Shown here: positions 20,050-47,165 of the stretch, one piece after another
Numbering within the stretch: the stretch's first letter is position 1
Layout: the number at the start of each line of letters is the position of its first letter
Origin: a virus
Lineage: Duplodnaviria > Caudoviricetes
Length of the DNA: 64,000 nucleotides
Direction: 5' to 3' (one strand)
Virus record (IMG/VR): IMGVR_UViG_3300028591_000086
Coordinates: 96,001-160,000 of that record
Position numbers and translations under genes: made by a program
The notes under the pieces: generated by a model
The model's database searches: none
What the model was told of the DNA's origin: nothing
The model's input: only the letters and a program-made list of their open reading frames with translations

Positions 20050-20260
20050 TTTTATCCTCCTAGGCAATTAAAAAGTTACATTATTTTGTTTAGTATTTAA
20101 TATTATTTTATTAAATACGGTGTAAAGTTGTGTATGTGATAGTTCATCTGTGTATCTTATATTTTTTCATCTTTTCCTCCACATTTAAATAATATATAAA
20201 CAAAAAATGTAACACCGCTTTGCGGTGTTACATTTCGTGATATTACAGAACAGAATGGAA

Positions 20261-24987: not shown

Positions 24988-26097
24988 TTAAATCGACAAT
25001 ATTTCAGCAATTTGTTCATCTGTTATCGATCTATGCAATACTTCATTAGCGTATTTAATAGTTATTTCATTGAAACTTAATCCATCGTATTCCTTAATAC
25101 GCTGTTTTCGTTCCTCTGAAAGTTTTTTATCTTCTTCAGATTTAGATTTATCAATAGTTTTAGCTTCTTTATATATCGATACATTATTGAATTGTGTACA
25201 AGCTGCTACCAAATTAGAAGCTTGATTATCAGTAATAGTATCAGATTTAAAAATCTTGATTCGTAATGCCGTACATTTAGAAGATTCATCATGCAATTGT
25301 TTTATTAAGTTTTCTAAATTATCAGTATCAAATTTGTTGAATGATAAAGTTTTATATGTAAATGCATCGGTGTTTACTATAAATTCGTCTTTAATAATTT
25401 TCTTAGTCTCAGTATCATATTCATGATATCTAAAACCTTTATCTTCTTCTTCACCATGTCTCCAACGTTGAAATGAACCGCAGTATTGAACTTTATTTTC
25501 TTCCATAGGCATGTGAATATGACCACCAACAAATTTACCTATTATAATATTATCAAATTCTTTAGAATTAAATGATATTTTATGAATCTTTATATTGTTT
25601 TGCAAAGCATAAGAACCCGCAAAAGTAAATAATCCGTGGAAAAATCCCCAATCATATCTTTCAGTAGTCTTAAGATATTTATCATATACTGATTTATCTG
25701 GATAATATTCTTCAGGTATAACCAGATAATGGAAATCTTTACCATAATAATCATCACACACGGTATTATATATCTTAAAGTTTTCATTACATCTAGATGA
25801 AAGAATCTCTAATTGATCTAAATCGTGTGATCTAGTTCCCTTAACAATAATTATACGAGCATTTGGAAATTCTGAAACCAATCTATCGATGAAACCAATA
25901 GCCATCTTTGCCTCTGTGGAATTCAATGACAACTTCAAATGAAACAAATCTCCACAGATTGCAATTATATTTACGTCAGGATTATTCTTTTTTAACCATC
26001 CAATAAAATTCTTTTCTAAATTTTCAAAAGTTCTTATTGTGTGGGCTGATGATACTCCAAAATGTATATCAGCTATTTCTGCTATTTTAATTTTCAT
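24988..26097 (-). CDS. sbcD: SbcD/Mre11-like metallophosphoesterase nuclease
   Basis: ADIH, GDLFH, GTRSHD, FHG, GHIH and YCGSFQR motifs. Confidence 0.88.
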   Translation of the reverse strand: MKIKIAEIADIHFGVSSAHTIRTFENLEKNFIGWLKKNNPDVNIIAICGDLFHLKLSLNSTEAKMAIGFIDRLVSEFPNARIIIVKGTRSHDLDQLEILSSRCNENFKIYNTVCDDYYGKDFHYLVIPEEYYPDKSVYDKYLKTTERYDWGFFHGLFTFAGSYALQNNIKIHKISFNSKEFDNIIIGKFVGGHIHMPMEENKVQYCGSFQRWRHGEEEDKGFRYHEYDTETKKIIKDEFIVNTDAFTYKTLSFNKFDTDNLENLIKQLHDESSKCTALRIKIFKSDTITDNQASNLVAACTQFNNVSIYKEAKTIDKSKSEEDKKLSEERKQRIKEYDGLSFNEITIKYANEVLHRSITDEQIAEILSI

Positions 26098-30278: not shown

Positions 30279-31049
30279 TTAAACACCTAAACGCGATGTA
30301 TCGATTTCTTGTAACAATTTGTGTATTTCTGTTACATCTATTATAAAATTAAAATATATATTTCCGCTTCCGCCAAAATCATCTCCAGCTATATCGACAC
30401 TGACGTCTGATATTATCGGATATTTTTTCTTAAGCAGATTCAATTGTTTTAAAGATTCATTATATGCTTTATCATAAATTCCTCCCCAACCATCATTACC
30501 ATTATTCCACCAAGAATCTTCACTATCTGGAAGTTTATCTAGATCCACGCCTGTATAAAATAATGCAGTTACTCCGCTCTCAAGTTTCATCTTACCGGTC
30601 TTATTCTTAGCATATTTAACAATTTCTTTTAAAAATGATCGAGTTATTTTTTCAGGCTTAAGATAATCATCCAAATCATCAGCTACAGAAAAATCATAAG
30701 CATCATTAAGCTTATTGATGCTATCACAAATGTTTTTTGCATCTTTTTTAATATTTGGAATGTGTTTAATGATGGTATTATTTAAGCTATCTGTTAATAA
30801 TTTTGTAATTTTTTCAACAACTACACGATTTTTCTTACAAAACACATTATATTTGCGATTATCTATCGCTGTTTCTATTCCAAGCGCAACACTTAATATT
30901 GCAAATGCTACAAATGGAAACAATACAAGACCAGTTAATATACCACCAATTATTCCTTCACTACTTTTTACTTCAGGTTTATTATTTATATTATCAGGTA
31001 CAGTAATACTAATAGGACTAGTACCTTCTTGACTTATAGTTATTTTCAT
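30279..31049 (-). CDS. putative virion (head) protein with propeptide, N-terminal paralog of 15234..16046
   Basis: MKITISQEGTSPISITVPDN...KSSEG followed by a hydrophobic helix. Confidence 0.65.
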   Translation of the reverse strand: MKITISQEGTSPISITVPDNINNKPEVKSSEGIIGGILTGLVLFPFVAFAILSVALGIETAIDNRKYNVFCKKNRVVVEKITKLLTDSLNNTIIKHIPNIKKDAKNICDSINKLNDAYDFSVADDLDDYLKPEKITRSFLKEIVKYAKNKTGKMKLESGVTALFYTGVDLDKLPDSEDSWWNNGNDGWGGIYDKAYNESLKQLNLLKKKYPIISDVSVDIAGDDFGGSGNIYFNFIIDVTEIHKLLQEIDTSRLGV

Positions 31050-31117
31050 AATTAATTTACCTCATATAAAAAAGTTATACATTATAAAGTTATGATATTA
31101 TAATGAGAGGTAAAAAT

Positions 31118-31516
31118 ATGAAATTATTACTTATACTTTTTATGATGATCTCTATACATTATTTATTCAGTATATTTTCACTGAATGCAATCGATAAATA
31201 TAAAAATAAAGAGTATTTCGAAAAAACATTCCCTAAAAAAATGTGTAAATACGATTACATTAATTATCTTATAACTGATAGTTATTTGTGGTCTATGTCT
31301 ATTTTATTACCGATAATAATAAATATAAACGGTTATATAACATGGGCTTCATTCATGGGAATAATAGTGAACGGAATAATTCGAGGAATAATAGAAGATC
31401 TAAGAATAAACAAAAAAATAATTAATGCATTTTCAGCAAATATTTGTTATATATTCCAAATATTTGTTACTGAAAGTATCTACGTTTTATTTTACAGAAA
31501 TATTTTATTTAATTAA
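31118..31516 (+). CDS. membrane protein, degenerate DUF3307-like
   Basis: ATG at 31118 after GAGG; four hydrophobic segments; KYDYI..L...S..W and DLRINKKIIN resemble phage DUF3307 proteins, but the His/Asp residues are mostly lost. Confidence 0.55.
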   Translation: MKLLLILFMMISIHYLFSIFSLNAIDKYKNKEYFEKTFPKKMCKYDYINYLITDSYLWSMSILLPIIININGYITWASFMGIIVNGIIRGIIEDLRINKKIINAFSANICYIFQIFVTESIYVLFYRNILFN

Positions 31517-31854
31517 TAAAAATATAGCTGGCTCGTAAGCCAGCTATATAAATTAAAGGAGATAAATCGAAAAAGATTATTTGTAAAATACCCCGTCTAT
31601 CTTTTTCGACAAACGTACATCTTATCATATAACCGCCAGGAGAATAAATGTGTGAACAAAAAATGAAAATGTTTAATAACAAACCCTATTACAACAAATG
31701 ACATTTTATTTCACGATTTATGATATCTTAATTTGACGTACGTTAGCAACAAAAAACAATTTAATTTCAAAATCATTTTAATAAAAATGATTAAGAAAGA
31801 TCAAAACAAAAGTAAAACATTTTAAATAAGGAGAAGTTTTATGTTTCAATTTCA
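31517..31854 (-). ncRNA. putative ~335-nt sRNA with three anti-SD tracts
   Basis: Late promoter AACA-TATAGA-TG (31864-31853), terminator 31523-31549 with minus-strand U-tract, no sizeable ORF, three UCUCCU tracts. Confidence 0.55.
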
Positions 31855-31885
31855 TCTATATGTTATATATCTCTTTTATTTTTTA

Positions 31886-32041
31886 TAAAAAAATGAGGAG
31901 GCCCGTAAGCCTCCTCATAAAACACAAAAAAAGGTCTTTTATACGAATGCAAAAGCACATAAAGCACTCGTATTATATGACTAAAAAAATAAGGGAGGAA
32001 TTCATGTTTATTTACGAGAGTAAATCATCATTGTTCTCTCA
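31886..32041 (-). ncRNA. putative ~155-nt sRNA with anti-AUG/anti-SD tract
   Basis: Late promoter AACA-TTATAT-TG (32051-32040), terminator 31893-31918 with U7, CAUGAAUUCCUCCCUU between two hairpins. Confidence 0.6.
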
Positions 32042-32074
32042 ATATAATGTTTAACTGATATATAAATTAATAAA

Positions 32075-32108
32075 ATTAATTCCCTACCATTACAGGTAGG
32101 GAATTAAT
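32075..32108 (-). terminator. intrinsic terminator after the RNAP beta gene
   Basis: ATTAATTCCCTACC-ATTACA-GGTAGGGAATTAAT. Confidence 0.8.
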
Positions 32109-32111
32109 CAT

Positions 32112-35100
32112 TTATTCTTTATTTTTAAAGTATTCTTCAGCTATTTCTTTTCCTCTCTCAAATAATATCTTAGAAAGATAACCATTTAAGAAAGTACTAC
32201 AAACCATTCTGTTTAGAACACCAATAGTACTTTGAATAAAGTCGATAGTATTAAACTTACTCTTGCTATTGATTCGATAAGCACATTCATCTTTTTCCAT
32301 AGTTTTATTGATTACTGTTTTAAGAGCAGGCATAAGTGCAATCTTATCACCAGGATGTCTATCTTCAACATGCTCTATATAATATTCAATAACTATACTA
32401 CCTGTCTTAGGATTAACAAGAACACCATTTAAACGATTCTTCATAGAATTTAATGGCTTAGAAACCCTTACTTCCATTCTTCGTTTACTTGGTGTATTTG
32501 TTAGGGCTTCTTCTTCTTTAATTTCTTTATTGATCTTCGCTATATATTGCTTAACAAATTTTTTAGCAGATTCACCCATTAAATCAGGATCTATAGTCCA
32601 ATACATTTTTATATCGTGTATTTTACCAGTGTAATTTGCACCTGAAGAGTGTCTAGCAATAGTATCAAGAACATCATCATCAACATCACCTAATTGATCA
32701 AGTAATGCCATATCAGAATCAGCATCTTTAGCATCTTCATATATTAAAAGTGGATCCCCATAAGTTACATGATCACCAACTTTAACACTTGAAATTATAT
32801 TAGCTGTTGGATTAAGAACAATTTGTTTTCGTTTAATAATAGTTGTGGCAACTTTCTTAGCTAATCGCCATGAAATAGCTGAAGAGTCTTCCTCAGTTAC
32901 TTCACCTTCATGAATTGCTACTCTAGCTAATGCCCCTTGTGTGTAAATTAAACGACCCATAGATTTTTTAAAGTAATCTTTATTATGAGTTATTATTTGT
33001 CCTTCTTTTATACTTTGTCCTTCTTTAACATCGACTTCAATATTATTAGCTAAGAAGAAATCCGAATTCTTAATATTTCTATTACCAAAATCTACTCTAT
33101 CAGTAGTTCCGTCATTATATTTTATAAGCACGTATTTGTTCTCTTCATCAACCTTAATAATTTTACCGTTCTGTTTAGCTTTATATCCAAAAGTAGACGA
33201 TACTTTATAAGGTACAGTACGTTCCATTCCAGTTCCTACCATAGGAACGTCAAATGCCGCTCCAGCAACAAGGTGTTTTGTTTGGGAAGATAAGAATCCT
33301 ATACGTTTAGGATCATTATAAATACCGTATGGAACACACTCTTCAAAAGCGTACAACGATGATGCCGACAGATTCTTAGTTTCTTTAACTGTAGTAGATT
33401 GAACAAATCCGTAAGTATTAACTATTCGAGGATTAGCAGTTAACTGTCTGTTAATACCAATATTACCATTATCTGGACCAGATATTGCTTCTGTACCAAT
33501 ATTACTTATAGTTTGTCCACGTTTATCCAACGTAAATGCTCTATCCATATTGATACCGTTAGGTCCTTTAAATGTAACTCCTGATTTTTCTCGTAATTCA
33601 CTACCTGGAGATGTGGTATCATAATTAACTAAAATAAAAGATTTATTAAGCTTATTTATAATATCTTCTTCAGGTATAGAAAATCCTTCTCTAGATTTTC
33701 CTTTTTGCATATAAATACGATAATTTTCAGAAATACTATTATATAATAAATCTGGTAATACTTCATAGTCTCTGATTCTCCAAGAACTAACTTCTCCAGA
33801 AGGAGTAAATTGATTATCTTGAAGTAAAGAGTTTGCATATATCAATAATTCACATAAATCTGTTGGGAGATGTAATTCTTTTATAATCTCTAAAGTCTTA
33901 GGATCTAAGAACAAATCTCTAAATGCTATCCAACCTTTAATAAGGTTTCTAGTTTCAAATTTATTATAAGTGAATTCGATATATGTATTTAAATTATCCA
34001 AATCTTTAAATTCCATCGTACTTAAAGGAAGCATACATAAACCGTTAAGCAACATTGCATGATCTAATGGGAACATTCCATAATACAAACTACCATCAGC
34101 AAATTGTAAATAGTTAGAATTATTCGGATCGATAAATGCTTTATCTTCTTCAGACAATTCTGAATGTTTAGTTCCTTTAGGAATAAATAAAGTTTTAATA
34201 TTTCCTGCTTCTAATACTTTTTGGAAACCAAAAGTACCAGATAAGAAAATTATTAAAGGTATTTCTTTAGACTGTATTTCAATCTTAGAGAAAATTTTCT
34301 TTACATTACCTTTAACTGAATTAATTGTCTTATCTATCAGAGAAATAAGATTTGGATTATCTGTAGATTTTATATCTTCAAAAATTAATTTTGAAACAGA
34401 ACTATCTAGTTTTACTTTATCAAGTGTTATAACTGAATTATCTGCACGTATACCTACAGGTATTTCGGTACTATCAAAATTAAATTTAATATGATTATTA
34501 GTAATAACATCATGTATTTCTTTCTGATTAAAATAATAAATAATTTCTTTAGTTGATTTAGGATTGATAATTATTTTATCATACATACATGCTAATTCAT
34601 CATATTCGATAGATGTATCGTATTCAAGATTTATTTTTGAGTTATTACCGCGATATATTTCGATGTCTTTAATATAATTACTTGCTTCTTTAGAAATTTG
34701 AGAAATAAATTTACTTAACGCAATAGATAATTTATTTATTTTTTGACCGCTTCTAAAAATACGTACTTTATTGTAATTTGATAATACGTACACTTCATCT
34801 GGTGATGTTTTAGTTACAGGTTTTAAAATCCATTGCTTTTTAAGCATTTTAGTATTTCCACCGATATACATAAATCCATCATCATCTATTTTTGGCATTT
34901 TAAATGTGATATTATGACTTTTACCAAACTTATCTTTAAGTTCGAATCTATATCTTTCAAGTTTATTAAATTGATCAGATATATCTTCTTTTTCAAATTT
35001 GACAATAGCCATTTGATTGGATTTATTTTCATCAGAGAATGCTTTAACGTTTGCAACTATATCTTGTGCTAAAGTTTTCTTTACATAACTCTTTGTAAAA

Positions 35101-37043
35101 TCTGTTAAGATTGATGTATTGAATGAACTATCTGCTAAATCAAGTTTTTCATCATGATTATCTATACTTACAGTATTTGCTCTGTTAAGTACATCTTCAA
35201 GTGTTTCGTTTTCATTAAATTTAATACTTTTGTATTTATCTTTAATGCTATTATAATATGCTTGTTGTTTAGCAGAAGTTTTTCCTTCAAGAGTTTCTCT
35301 TACACTATTTATAATTGCAGTAGTTGCATTAGATTGATTTTTCTTATTGTGTTCGTCCATGAAATCTTCATCATCATCAGAAGATTCATCTTCTTCAAAA
35401 TCATCCTCTTCTTCTATATCGTCTTCAGAAGGTTCATTATCAGAAATATTTTCATCAGGTTCTTCAGTTTCATTTTCATCTTCATCATTATCATCACCAA
35501 AATCCCAATCATCATCAGGATTATCTTCATCAGTAAAATTTTGGACTTTATTTATAAATCCGTGTAATTTACTGAGATTATTTATTTCTTTTTTCTCATC
35601 TGAAGATATAACTATATTTGTTTGTTTTTGTTTAGATAAATCGTTTTCAGTTTTAAATCCTAATTCTATTTGTTTATCTAAACGAAGTTTTGCTTCAGTT
35701 AATAATTCAAGTGTAGATTTATTATTATTTTTAGGATTATTATTCTTAATATAATCTAATAATTGTTTATCAGAAGCTTTAAGTTTAGAATTAAAATTAG
35801 AAATATCAGATTTTGATGTGATAGTTTTTTCAGCTTCAATAATAGGTTTATTAATGTCTTGTATCATCTGTTTATTAAATTCTTCATTATTTGAAATCGT
35901 TGAATTTATATTATTTGAAACTTCTTCACTGTCTCCATCAGAAGAGTTAATCATTTGTGTTACTAATTCATCAACTTCATTATCTGAAATTTCAGAATTA
36001 TTAAGACCTATAAGTATTTTCAATGAAGATTTAATAAATCTAAATGTAGAATCAAAACGCATTCCTTTTTCGATAAATTCTTTATAATCTACATAAAAAG
36101 CGTGTGTTTCATTATAAAAAATGAATGTAACATGATCCATTTGTTTAATATAATCTTTTAATAATCTTGATATTGGACTATCTTCGAAAGGAGAATCATC
36201 TAAAAGACCTATTACAAATTTTAAAATACCTAAATGACTAGATATTTCAGGATCACGTTTTAAAATATTTGATGTCAATCTAAATTCTGGATTTATCCAA
36301 ATATTAGGAATTCGTTTATCTTTGCTTGTTATTTTAAACGGTATTATTATATTTTTAAAATTATCAGCAATTGGAGGAAGTGAAGTTATGTAAGTTGAAA
36401 ACAGTGGAGATACTTCATTGTTATTACTGAATACTAATCTCAAAATGTTTTGTAGAATAATTGTTTCAGATGTTCTCATAACAGCTGGTCTACTACACAT
36501 TTTTAAATTAGGTAATGTTTCGTTTAAAATACCAGTTAAATCGAATACTGTATTTTTAAGATTTTTAATTATATAACTTGGTAATTGTGTTAAACCTGGT
36601 AGATATTTATTCTTAATTTGAATAAAATCTTCAGGTTTATTTGTTTTTATAATTTTTTTGCTGCCAGGGATAAATGGGTTTTTATAACCCATTTTTCTTG
36701 GAAAGACATAATTAAAAATCATTTGTTTATACATGTTTTCGCCAAAAAATAACTTAACAGTTTCTGCTACTTCACTAGAAGTATGAACTAATGGCAATAA
36801 TGCAACGTTTGATTTTTGACGAAGTAAAATTCCGTTTTTAGGAAAATCAATTTTATTTTTTCTTAACCTAAATAATTTTCCGAATTTCATCACAGGTGGA
36901 AGTAATTGTGAATATGCTTCCAAACCAAGAATTTCGTTTGGTGAAGAAATAAATAAACTTTCACCAGATTTAATTTTACTGGCTCTTAATTTTTCAAAAT
37001 TGTCAATTGACACGTCGTAAATTTTTGTATTGTCACTGTTCAT
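32112..37043 (-). CDS. RNA polymerase beta subunit, virion-type (phiKZ gp178-like architecture) with long N-terminal extension
   Basis: MPKIDDDGFMYIGG, GPDNGNIGI, NDPKRIGFLSSQTKH (=DDANRALMGANMQRQ), VGTGME, EDSSAIS, GDKIA...KTVI, GVLNRM; lacks the beta C-terminal clamp part; late promoter at 37117-37128. Confidence 0.9.
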   Translation of the reverse strand: MNSDNTKIYDVSIDNFEKLRASKIKSGESLFISSPNEILGLEAYSQLLPPVMKFGKLFRLRKNKIDFPKNGILLRQKSNVALLPLVHTSSEVAETVKLFFGENMYKQMIFNYVFPRKMGYKNPFIPGSKKIIKTNKPEDFIQIKNKYLPGLTQLPSYIIKNLKNTVFDLTGILNETLPNLKMCSRPAVMRTSETIILQNILRLVFSNNNEVSPLFSTYITSLPPIADNFKNIIIPFKITSKDKRIPNIWINPEFRLTSNILKRDPEISSHLGILKFVIGLLDDSPFEDSPISRLLKDYIKQMDHVTFIFYNETHAFYVDYKEFIEKGMRFDSTFRFIKSSLKILIGLNNSEISDNEVDELVTQMINSSDGDSEEVSNNINSTISNNEEFNKQMIQDINKPIIEAEKTITSKSDISNFNSKLKASDKQLLDYIKNNNPKNNNKSTLELLTEAKLRLDKQIELGFKTENDLSKQKQTNIVISSDEKKEINNLSKLHGFINKVQNFTDEDNPDDDWDFGDDNDEDENETEEPDENISDNEPSEDDIEEEDDFEEDESSDDDEDFMDEHNKKNQSNATTAIINSVRETLEGKTSAKQQAYYNSIKDKYKSIKFNENETLEDVLNRANTVSIDNHDEKLDLADSSFNTSILTDFTKSYVKKTLAQDIVANVKAFSDENKSNQMAIVKFEKEDISDQFNKLERYRFELKDKFGKSHNITFKMPKIDDDGFMYIGGNTKMLKKQWILKPVTKTSPDEVYVLSNYNKVRIFRSGQKINKLSIALSKFISQISKEASNYIKDIEIYRGNNSKINLEYDTSIEYDELACMYDKIIINPKSTKEIIYYFNQKEIHDVITNNHIKFNFDSTEIPVGIRADNSVITLDKVKLDSSVSKLIFEDIKSTDNPNLISLIDKTINSVKGNVKKIFSKIEIQSKEIPLIIFLSGTFGFQKVLEAGNIKTLFIPKGTKHSELSEEDKAFIDPNNSNYLQFADGSLYYGMFPLDHAMLLNGLCMLPLSTMEFKDLDNLNTYIEFTYNKFETRNLIKGWIAFRDLFLDPKTLEIIKELHLPTDLCELLIYANSLLQDNQFTPSGEVSSWRIRDYEVLPDLLYNSISENYRIYMQKGKSREGFSIPEEDIINKLNKSFILVNYDTTSPGSELREKSGVTFKGPNGINMDRAFTLDKRGQTISNIGTEAISGPDNGNIGINRQLTANPRIVNTYGFVQSTTVKETKNLSASSLYAFEECVPYGIYNDPKRIGFLSSQTKHLVAGAAFDVPMVGTGMERTVPYKVSSTFGYKAKQNGKIIKVDEENKYVLIKYNDGTTDRVDFGNRNIKNSDFFLANNIEVDVKEGQSIKEGQIITHNKDYFKKSMGRLIYTQGALARVAIHEGEVTEEDSSAISWRLAKKVATTIIKRKQIVLNPTANIISSVKVGDHVTYGDPLLIYEDAKDADSDMALLDQLGDVDDDVLDTIARHSSGANYTGKIHDIKMYWTIDPDLMGESAKKFVKQYIAKINKEIKEEEALTNTPSKRRMEVRVSKPLNSMKNRLNGVLVNPKTGSIVIEYYIEHVEDRHPGDKIALMPALKTVINKTMEKDECAYRINSKSKFNTIDFIQSTIGVLNRMVCSTFLNGYLSKILFERGKEIAEEYFKNKE

Positions 37044-38732: not shown

Positions 38733-38846
38733 GACATTTTCCTCCTTTTCTATTTATTCAATAATATAATATAAACGTTTGATTATAGATTGATTAAAAT
38801 ATGTATTAATATTAAATACAAAACAAAATAATGATTGGAGGCGAAT

Positions 38847-47157: not shown

Positions 47158-47165
47158 TATATTAT
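47158..47165 (+). promoter_or_regulatory. early-type promoter TATATTAT
   Basis: Same octamer upstream of units at 15158(-), 20189(-), 38761(-), 48633(+), 51173(+). Confidence 0.6.

Follow-up and report, generated by a model that had tools for sequence, protein, structure and literature searches.

The window, that is, the whole stretch of 64,000 nucleotides that was analysed, covers bases 96001-160000 of a 195-kb IMG/VR record (IMGVR_UViG_3300028591_000086; 29% G+C, record estimated to be ~70% complete) of a virus of the Caudoviricetes; sheep and cattle gut metagenomes contain the DNA of the window or near copies of it. Near its middle, on the minus strand, lies a gene for RNAP beta (32112-37043, 1643 aa), which matches phrog_3148 (E 6e-160) and gives weak PDB matches to bacterial beta. 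The closest relatives of this protein (P0001-P0010) are 76-99% identical to it, and the nearest cultured ones, at 28-30% identity, belong to the jumbo phages S6, MarsHill (Staphylococcus), LPJP1 (Listeria) and phiR1-37 (Yersinia). Between the RNAP beta gene and the next gene lies a stretch of 595 nt (31517-32111) that holds three minus-strand intrinsic terminators, T1, T2 and T3, within at most 600 nt; over 31000-32600 there are five terminator-like sites, as against 0.3 in shuffled sequence. T1 (32074-32109, minus strand) is the hairpin that ends the RNAP beta gene; it has 15 pairs and a weak, interrupted U tail, scores on the plus strand too, and could act on both strands. T2 and T3 each close a small unit on the minus strand, which we call unit A (32051-31886) and unit B (31517-31864), the latter with a late motif at 31864, three CUCCU sites and T3 at 31549-31522. 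The block is bounded by a convergent gene on the plus strand (31103-31516) for a conserved hydrophobic protein of ~130 aa, which marks the end of synteny; the protein is without a match in Pfam or PHROG, and is 31% identical (E 5e-19) to the product of its positional counterpart in L011 (6406-6804, minus strand), one of the related loci described below. Translation probably begins at the ATG at 31119, which is preceded by GAGAGGT, and a plus-strand terminator is absent between the gene and T1.

Inspection of the sequence located on the minus strand, between 32051 and 31886, every element that an earlier note on this DNA had listed for unit A. In the order in which they would be transcribed, these are a late-type promoter motif of the form AACAT-N5-TGA (32039-32051; AACA-N6-TG at 32051-32040), with G32040 as the predicted start; a 5' domain, predicted to fold into an imperfect hairpin of 46 nt that begins at +1 (31995-32040); an anti-start-site tract, or seed (31983-32009), in which a CAU (32006-32004) is followed by CCUCCC (31998-31993) and then by UUAU and U7; hairpin 2 (31941-31973), whose 10-bp arms (31973-31964 and 31950-31941) enclose a 13-nt loop and are predicted to pair with a probability of ~1.0; and the intrinsic terminator T2 (31887-31918), with an 11-bp stem (31918-31893, six G-C pairs) and a U run that extends to 31887. 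Only when read on the minus strand do T2 and T3 end in a U tail, the T2 hairpin being followed on the plus strand by an A-rich stretch; judged by this sequence pattern, they are one-directional terminators for the minus strand. The late-type promoter motif, the 5'-terminal stem and the one-directional terminator support the earlier note's view of unit A as a minus-strand transcription unit in its own right. Its coding potential on that strand is confined to frames of 7 and 10 codons, both of which lack an SD.

Unit A has no repeat elsewhere in the genome, and orphan SD-like cores with tiny frames cluster in the 195-kb record at this place only (outside terminator stems and the tRNA region); the genome-wide search for further such units that the earlier note proposed therefore returned none in the record. 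No Rfam covariance model, including RsaE, RNAIII, LhrC, C4 and all others, matches the region at or near its gathering score: the highest score, on the T1 hairpin, is 27.5 bits where the cut-off is 65, and unit A reaches at most 22.2 bits, on the T2 region. A blastn search of the region against the phage collection likewise gave no match.

The promoter motif belongs to a series. The 195-kb record contains 27 copies of the pattern [AG]ACAT-N5-TGA. Of these, 16 are intergenic where 3.2 are expected (a 5-fold enrichment), and most of the intergenic ones have a co-directional SD and ATG 20-110 nt downstream. Copies stand before the RNAP beta gene (37128) and before the tRNA cluster (49505), and units A and B are headed by one each. 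Phage AR9 has the late promoter consensus AACA-N6-T-A/G, in which the last base is the start site (PMC5312081). The motif of unit A (AACA, six bases, TG; 32051-32040) fits this consensus, and it is on this basis that a start at G32040 and an RNA of ~154 nt are predicted. The enrichment upstream of genes and the fit to the AR9 late consensus together make it credible that unit A has its own promoter, as had been proposed. On the plus strand, neither a late nor an early promoter motif lies upstream of the 16-codon frame that mirrors the seed.

Several other sequence elements of the record were seen alongside. A second promoter-like motif, TATATTAT, which often has TTTATTTAAA 12-15 nt before it, is over-represented in intergenic DNA, with 17 of 30 copies for the 9-mer TATATTATA, and is found just upstream of many SD and ATG starts (for example at window positions 47158, 51173 and 64342, and at 38773 on the minus strand); it is probably an early promoter, resembling the early type of AR9. 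Another enriched 9-mer, CGATACATT, counted together with its complement, is intergenic in 9 of 16 copies, one of them near window position 15165. On the minus strand at 20150-20200 of the window, a frame of just 8 codons comes after an early-type promoter motif and a strong SD (GGAGG); the site may represent a micro-ORF, the broken start of a gene or a further small RNA mirror. A perfect palindrome that lies outside the window, at G000:C1:174650-174713, has the arms CCUCCC and GGGAGG with A/U flanks, and looks like a terminator made from an SD/anti-SD pair.

The predicted fold of unit A is more stable than that of shuffled sequences, both for the whole unit (z -5.3) and for the body without the terminator (z -3.0; none of 200 shuffles is as good). 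The first 12 bases of the predicted RNA, a purine-rich stretch and an AUG, resemble a start site, and this 5' end (GAGAGAA..AUG) is predicted to pair with the CAU and the UUCCUC of the seed, which leaves these with unpaired probabilities of 0.03-0.3. Of the earlier proposal that the seed is unpaired, only the 3' part thus holds: in the minimum-energy fold as in the ensemble, the free portion consists solely of the last C of CCUCCC and the UUAU-U7 tail. About half of the seed is paired in the predicted ensemble. The computed cost of opening is 3.1 kcal/mol over 18 nt of the seed, or 1.2 kcal/mol if UCCUCCC alone is opened, and the mean unpaired probability of this anti-SD site is 0.41 in unit A, and 0.45-1.0 in its relatives. 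The short 5' hairpin that had been described does have its two arms, GAGAG (32040-32036) and CUCUC (32020-32016); it corresponds, however, to the next-best alternative fold and not to the one of minimum energy. An antiterminator role of the seed, through pairing with the 5' arm of T2, was considered and rejected, such pairing offering only 5 bp against the 11-bp stem of the terminator.

Relatives of the locus were collected from JGI metagenomes by a profile scan, which yielded twelve loci (L011-L022) with RNAP beta proteins 41-66% identical to the one described here. In all twelve, representing about seven lineages, the RNAP beta gene is followed on the same strand, at most ~1 kb downstream, by a late motif, a body that contains CCUCC but no ORF, and a terminator. 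Across 15 unit bodies there are 34 anti-SD sites and not a single SD site, and the anti-SD sites are mostly predicted to be unpaired. In the relatives the motif has the form ACCUCCUUA or ACCUCCC and so equals the anti-SD together with its native flanks; a 12-mer, UUACCUCCCUAA, is common to L011, L012, L014 and L015. A stem at +1 is shared with the A-type units of the relatives and is also present in L016-L019 and L021. The two-unit cassette perceived by the earlier note is itself syntenic, since L011 and L012 retain both unit types, the second being longer and unit B-like, together with the convergent ~130-aa gene. The homology between unit A and the A-type units of these two loci is weak except in the seed and at the 3' end; in both, a second anti-SD lies in the loop of the second hairpin, and the stem of that hairpin shows compensatory changes. 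The loss of the seed with retention of the 16-codon frame, which the earlier note had named as the outcome that would speak against it, is the reverse of what is seen: the anti-SD core is kept in 12/12 loci and the mini-ORF is not conserved. The claim that an anti-AUG accompanies the anti-SD at natural spacing carries over in part; it applies to the first seed of A-type units (with TTG instead in L022) and to that of B-type units, but is not robust across the family, the CAU being within a stem in L011 and L012, and a start codon being absent opposite 13 of the 34 anti-SD sites.

In L014 (5471-5605) and L015 (7868-8003), the small unit begins ~20 nt past the RNAP beta stop codon; no terminator separates the two, so the RNA shares the terminator of the RNAP beta mRNA, an arrangement that may be likened to a small RNA embedded in a 3'UTR with its own promoter. 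Outside the JGI loci, the RNAP beta genes of the cultured phages LPJP1 and S6 are not followed by a unit of this kind, nor is there room for one. A profile scan of genome contigs returned nothing. In IMG/VR, a single-protein search likewise returned nothing, and a profile search returned only loci of at most 42% identity, without an evident unit of late motif plus terminator after RNAP beta; the 18-mer seed has three matches there. A pattern scan of IMG/VR (late motif, CAU, CCUCCCU) was discarded as a means of finding members, as 75 of its 111 matches were real genes on the opposite strand and only one of the other 36 had a terminator.

A variant strain, present in one RNA run and two DNA runs, offers a comparison at shorter range. 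Its contig over 31872-32025, a piece from the RNA run, differs by exactly three substitutions (31948, 31967 and 31973), all within the stem of hairpin 2, and none falls between 31974 and 32025. Read on the minus strand, the three produce a G.U, an A-U and a G.U pair, and all ten pairs of the stem are kept; read on the plus strand, two of the same three produce A.C mismatches that break the hairpin. This asymmetry between G.U and A.C is diagnostic of the minus strand, in a small sample of three substitutions. Unit B of the variant strain differs by several small indels, one of them an insertion of 6 bases after 31703.

The evidence from RNA consists of assembled Logan contigs of metatranscriptomes, from which strand and ends cannot be read. 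In run X23, a 272-nt contig over unit B (31591-31841) has a depth of 68, against 2.6-6.9 on the flanking genes, and the RNA of unit B looks abundant. The sole RNA-library contig over unit A (151 nt, 31872-32025) has a depth of 2.8, no deeper than the flanking genes, and crosses T2; it may stem from read-through or from contaminating DNA, and is evidence neither for nor against an RNA of unit A. In run X2 the intergenic region is without cover, which tells neither way.

The seed predicts a target, and this target was sought at several levels. The earlier observation that the window contains no exact match holds for the entire record: with up to two mismatches allowed, the 16-mer target occurs only at the locus itself. 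Among the start sites of the phage (n = 147), the best duplex reaches -19.1 kcal/mol, a value equalled by 55% of seeds with shuffled flanks. The best site genome-wide (30461-30500; 15 bp, -24.3 kcal/mol) was rejected, as it lies out of frame inside a gene for 256 aa and is equalled by 63% of shuffles; so were the start site of the gene at 24988-26097, with a 12-bp match that is within chance, and that of RNAP beta, which has a weak SD and no match. A scan of GTDB for the 20-mer gave 11 matches and no start-site target among them: nine are cyanobacterial, one is from Bdellovibrionales and one, from a rumen Prevotellaceae, is inside a coding region. The 20-mer mirror of the seed (L137-L146) is conserved in nine cyanobacterial genomes, including Planktothrix, Snowella and Crocosphaera; this is presumably one conserved cyanobacterial locus unrelated to the phage. 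The predicted silencer target was thus found neither in the 195-kb record nor as a GTDB start site. Since the searches with the 16-mer, over start sites, genome-wide and in GTDB all ended without a target, the seed shows only generic anti-SD complementarity to the sequences searched, namely the ~70% complete record and the GTDB genomes.

RsaE/RoxS, LhrC and the C-rich loops of RNAIII block ribosome-binding sites by base pairing. As described for these RNAs of low-GC Gram-positive bacteria (RNAIII being that of S. aureus), unit A and its relatives would give short, terminator-ended RNAs that act in trans, with a 5'-terminal stem and with exposed C-rich motifs complementary to the SD, which frequently lie in hairpin loops and of which one RNA often has several. 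Unlike them, unit A is encoded by a phage, has a promoter of the phage RNA polymerase type and matches no Rfam model; its motif, moreover, is the full anti-SD, CCUCC with flanks, where theirs is UCCC or CCCC. Among phage RNAs, the c4 antisense RNA of P1 and P7 blocks a ribosome-binding site by pairing, acts on the neighbouring icd-ant mRNA and is cut from a longer transcript (PMC12197685). Unit A resembles c4 in being phage-encoded and in its predicted pairing with ribosome-binding sites, and differs in that P1 and P7 are temperate, whereas unit A comes from a jumbo phage encoding RNA polymerase, has its own late promoter and has no complementary mRNA in the record. With the PBS1-like phage AR9 it shares the late promoter consensus and the start at its last base, although the RNAP beta identity to AR9 and its cultured relatives does not exceed 30%; late transcripts that are non-protein-coding or antisense exist in AR9 (PMC5312081), and in the papers searched no anti-SD RNA is described for AR9 or for jumbo phages in general.

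The four lines of promoter, terminators, variant strain and relatives favour the minus strand as the functional one, and the combination of a late promoter, a 5' stem, a pyrimidine tract and a terminator is, in its predicted anatomy, that of a base-pairing RNA that blocks ribosome-binding sites. We consider it likely that unit A is a minus-strand gene for a late non-coding RNA within a conserved cassette; to the overall reading, in which this late RNA acts by anti-SD pairing, we assign a probability of roughly 0.55. The late RNA polymerase of the phage itself, of the non-virion type, would start at G32040 from the AR9-type late promoter and stop at T2, releasing an RNA of ~154 nt with a 5'-end stem, one extended anti-SD tract (CCUCCC with a CAU 4 nt upstream), the stable hairpin 2 and the terminator. 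Unit A would represent a family of late, ORF-less CCUCC RNAs encoded downstream of RNAP beta in a clade of jumbo phages from the ruminant gut, present here in tandem with a longer unit. The weak internal helix that masks the seed would open first; the exposed pyrimidine tract would then pair with the SD and the start region of an mRNA and block the binding of the 30S subunit late in infection. We infer the production of this RNA, its ends and its pairing with mRNA, and likewise the role of unit A as a translational silencer, from these features.

Two alternatives start from the plus strand. Opposite the seed, a perfect SD, AAGGGAGG, a 5-nt spacer and an ATG (31991-32006) open a frame of 16 codons (32004-32054), its mirror, which we judge not to be a gene. 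These could drive the synthesis of a micro-protein, or form with the minus-strand RNA, as antisense repressor, a type I TA-like pair; the end of the frame sequesters the plus-strand SD, a trait of many type I toxin mRNAs, and unit B contains two further mirror frames of the same kind, one of them very hydrophobic. The likeness to the tandem type I loci Sib/Ibs, where a short frame with a strong SD is fully antisense to a small RNA and such units are also arrayed in tandem, ends at the conserved small hydrophobic toxin frame that characterizes them: the 16-residue peptide is polar and unlike membrane toxins, and the frames of this cassette are not conserved, nor are all of them hydrophobic. In the relatives the matching frames have 5, 18, 17 and 4 codons and are unrelated in sequence, one point change turns the 17 codons of L014 into the 4 of L015, and the ATG of L017 is gone in its close relatives L018-L021. 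Given also the anti-SD sites that have no start codon opposite them, the plus strand without a late or early promoter motif, a T2 that is not a terminator on that strand, and the variant substitutions that break hairpin 2 there, we regard a functional plus-strand frame as very improbable. A further, quite improbable, reading keeps the minus-strand RNAs and assigns them a partner in cis: the late RNAs of units A and B would pair perfectly with read-through transcripts of the convergent gene, leading to cleavage, or would prevent collisions between polymerases. The only perfect partner of the seed is indeed its own opposite strand, the convergent gene is conserved in position and meets no plus-strand terminator before T1, which scores on both strands while T3 and T2 lack a plus-strand U tail, and AR9 does make late antisense RNAs (PMC5312081). 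The conserved, exposed and strand-biased CCUCC motifs of every lineage would, however, be left unexplained by pairing in cis; moreover, L011 and L012 have a gene between the A-type unit and the convergent gene, and the terminator beside the convergent gene in L012 works on both strands.

It is unlikely that unit A lacks a function of its own, being a spare terminator region of RNAP beta with a chance or decaying promoter, and its pyrimidine tract the relic of an inverted gene start. Such a reading would accommodate the low RNA depth over unit A as against 68 over unit B, a seed that is partly masked, the target searches that found none, the weak U tail of T1, such that T2 may be the real end of the RNAP beta mRNA, and the single terminator that the unit and RNAP beta use in L014 and L015. 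It is at odds with a layout that recurs in 12/12 loci of about seven lineages, down to 41% identity in RNAP beta, with the folding z of -3.0 for the body, and with a variant strain that has only three substitutions in ~154 nt, all of them compatible with the structure. The same motifs could also be read as mimicry, the RNA presenting a copy of the 16S rRNA 3' tail to a protein or nuclease that recognizes this tail, such as a factor of the phage or a defence of the host, instead of pairing with mRNA. The native flanks around the anti-SD of the relatives, the several copies of the motif per RNA and the lack of a specific mRNA target agree with a decoy, which we hold to be improbable; complementarity to a canonical SD predicts the same sequences, such that these two readings are not separated, and the cassette is without a candidate for the partner protein. 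More broadly, units A and B and their relatives may constitute a dedicated late device of a jumbo-phage clade, in which abundant RNAs that copy the 16S tail either mask strong SDs throughout the cell, and so reprogram translation as a whole instead of single genes, or decoy a factor that binds or attacks the ribosomal anti-SD tail, a conjecture that we rate as distinctly unlikely.

Regulatory RNAs of virulent jumbo phages are, to our knowledge, almost unknown, and the phage small RNAs found in the literature searched come from temperate phages and each act on one defined message. The anti-SD pairing reading offers a directly testable handle, as compensatory mutants of seed and start site are feasible. 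For annotation, it matters to the treatment of micro-ORFs that the strongest intergenic "gene starts" in such phages can be mirrors of RNA seeds. If the reading is true, conserved RNAs that are read by the phage polymerase and show the docking sequence of the ribosome would mean that the jumbo phages of this clade tune translation by RNA as well as by proteins.
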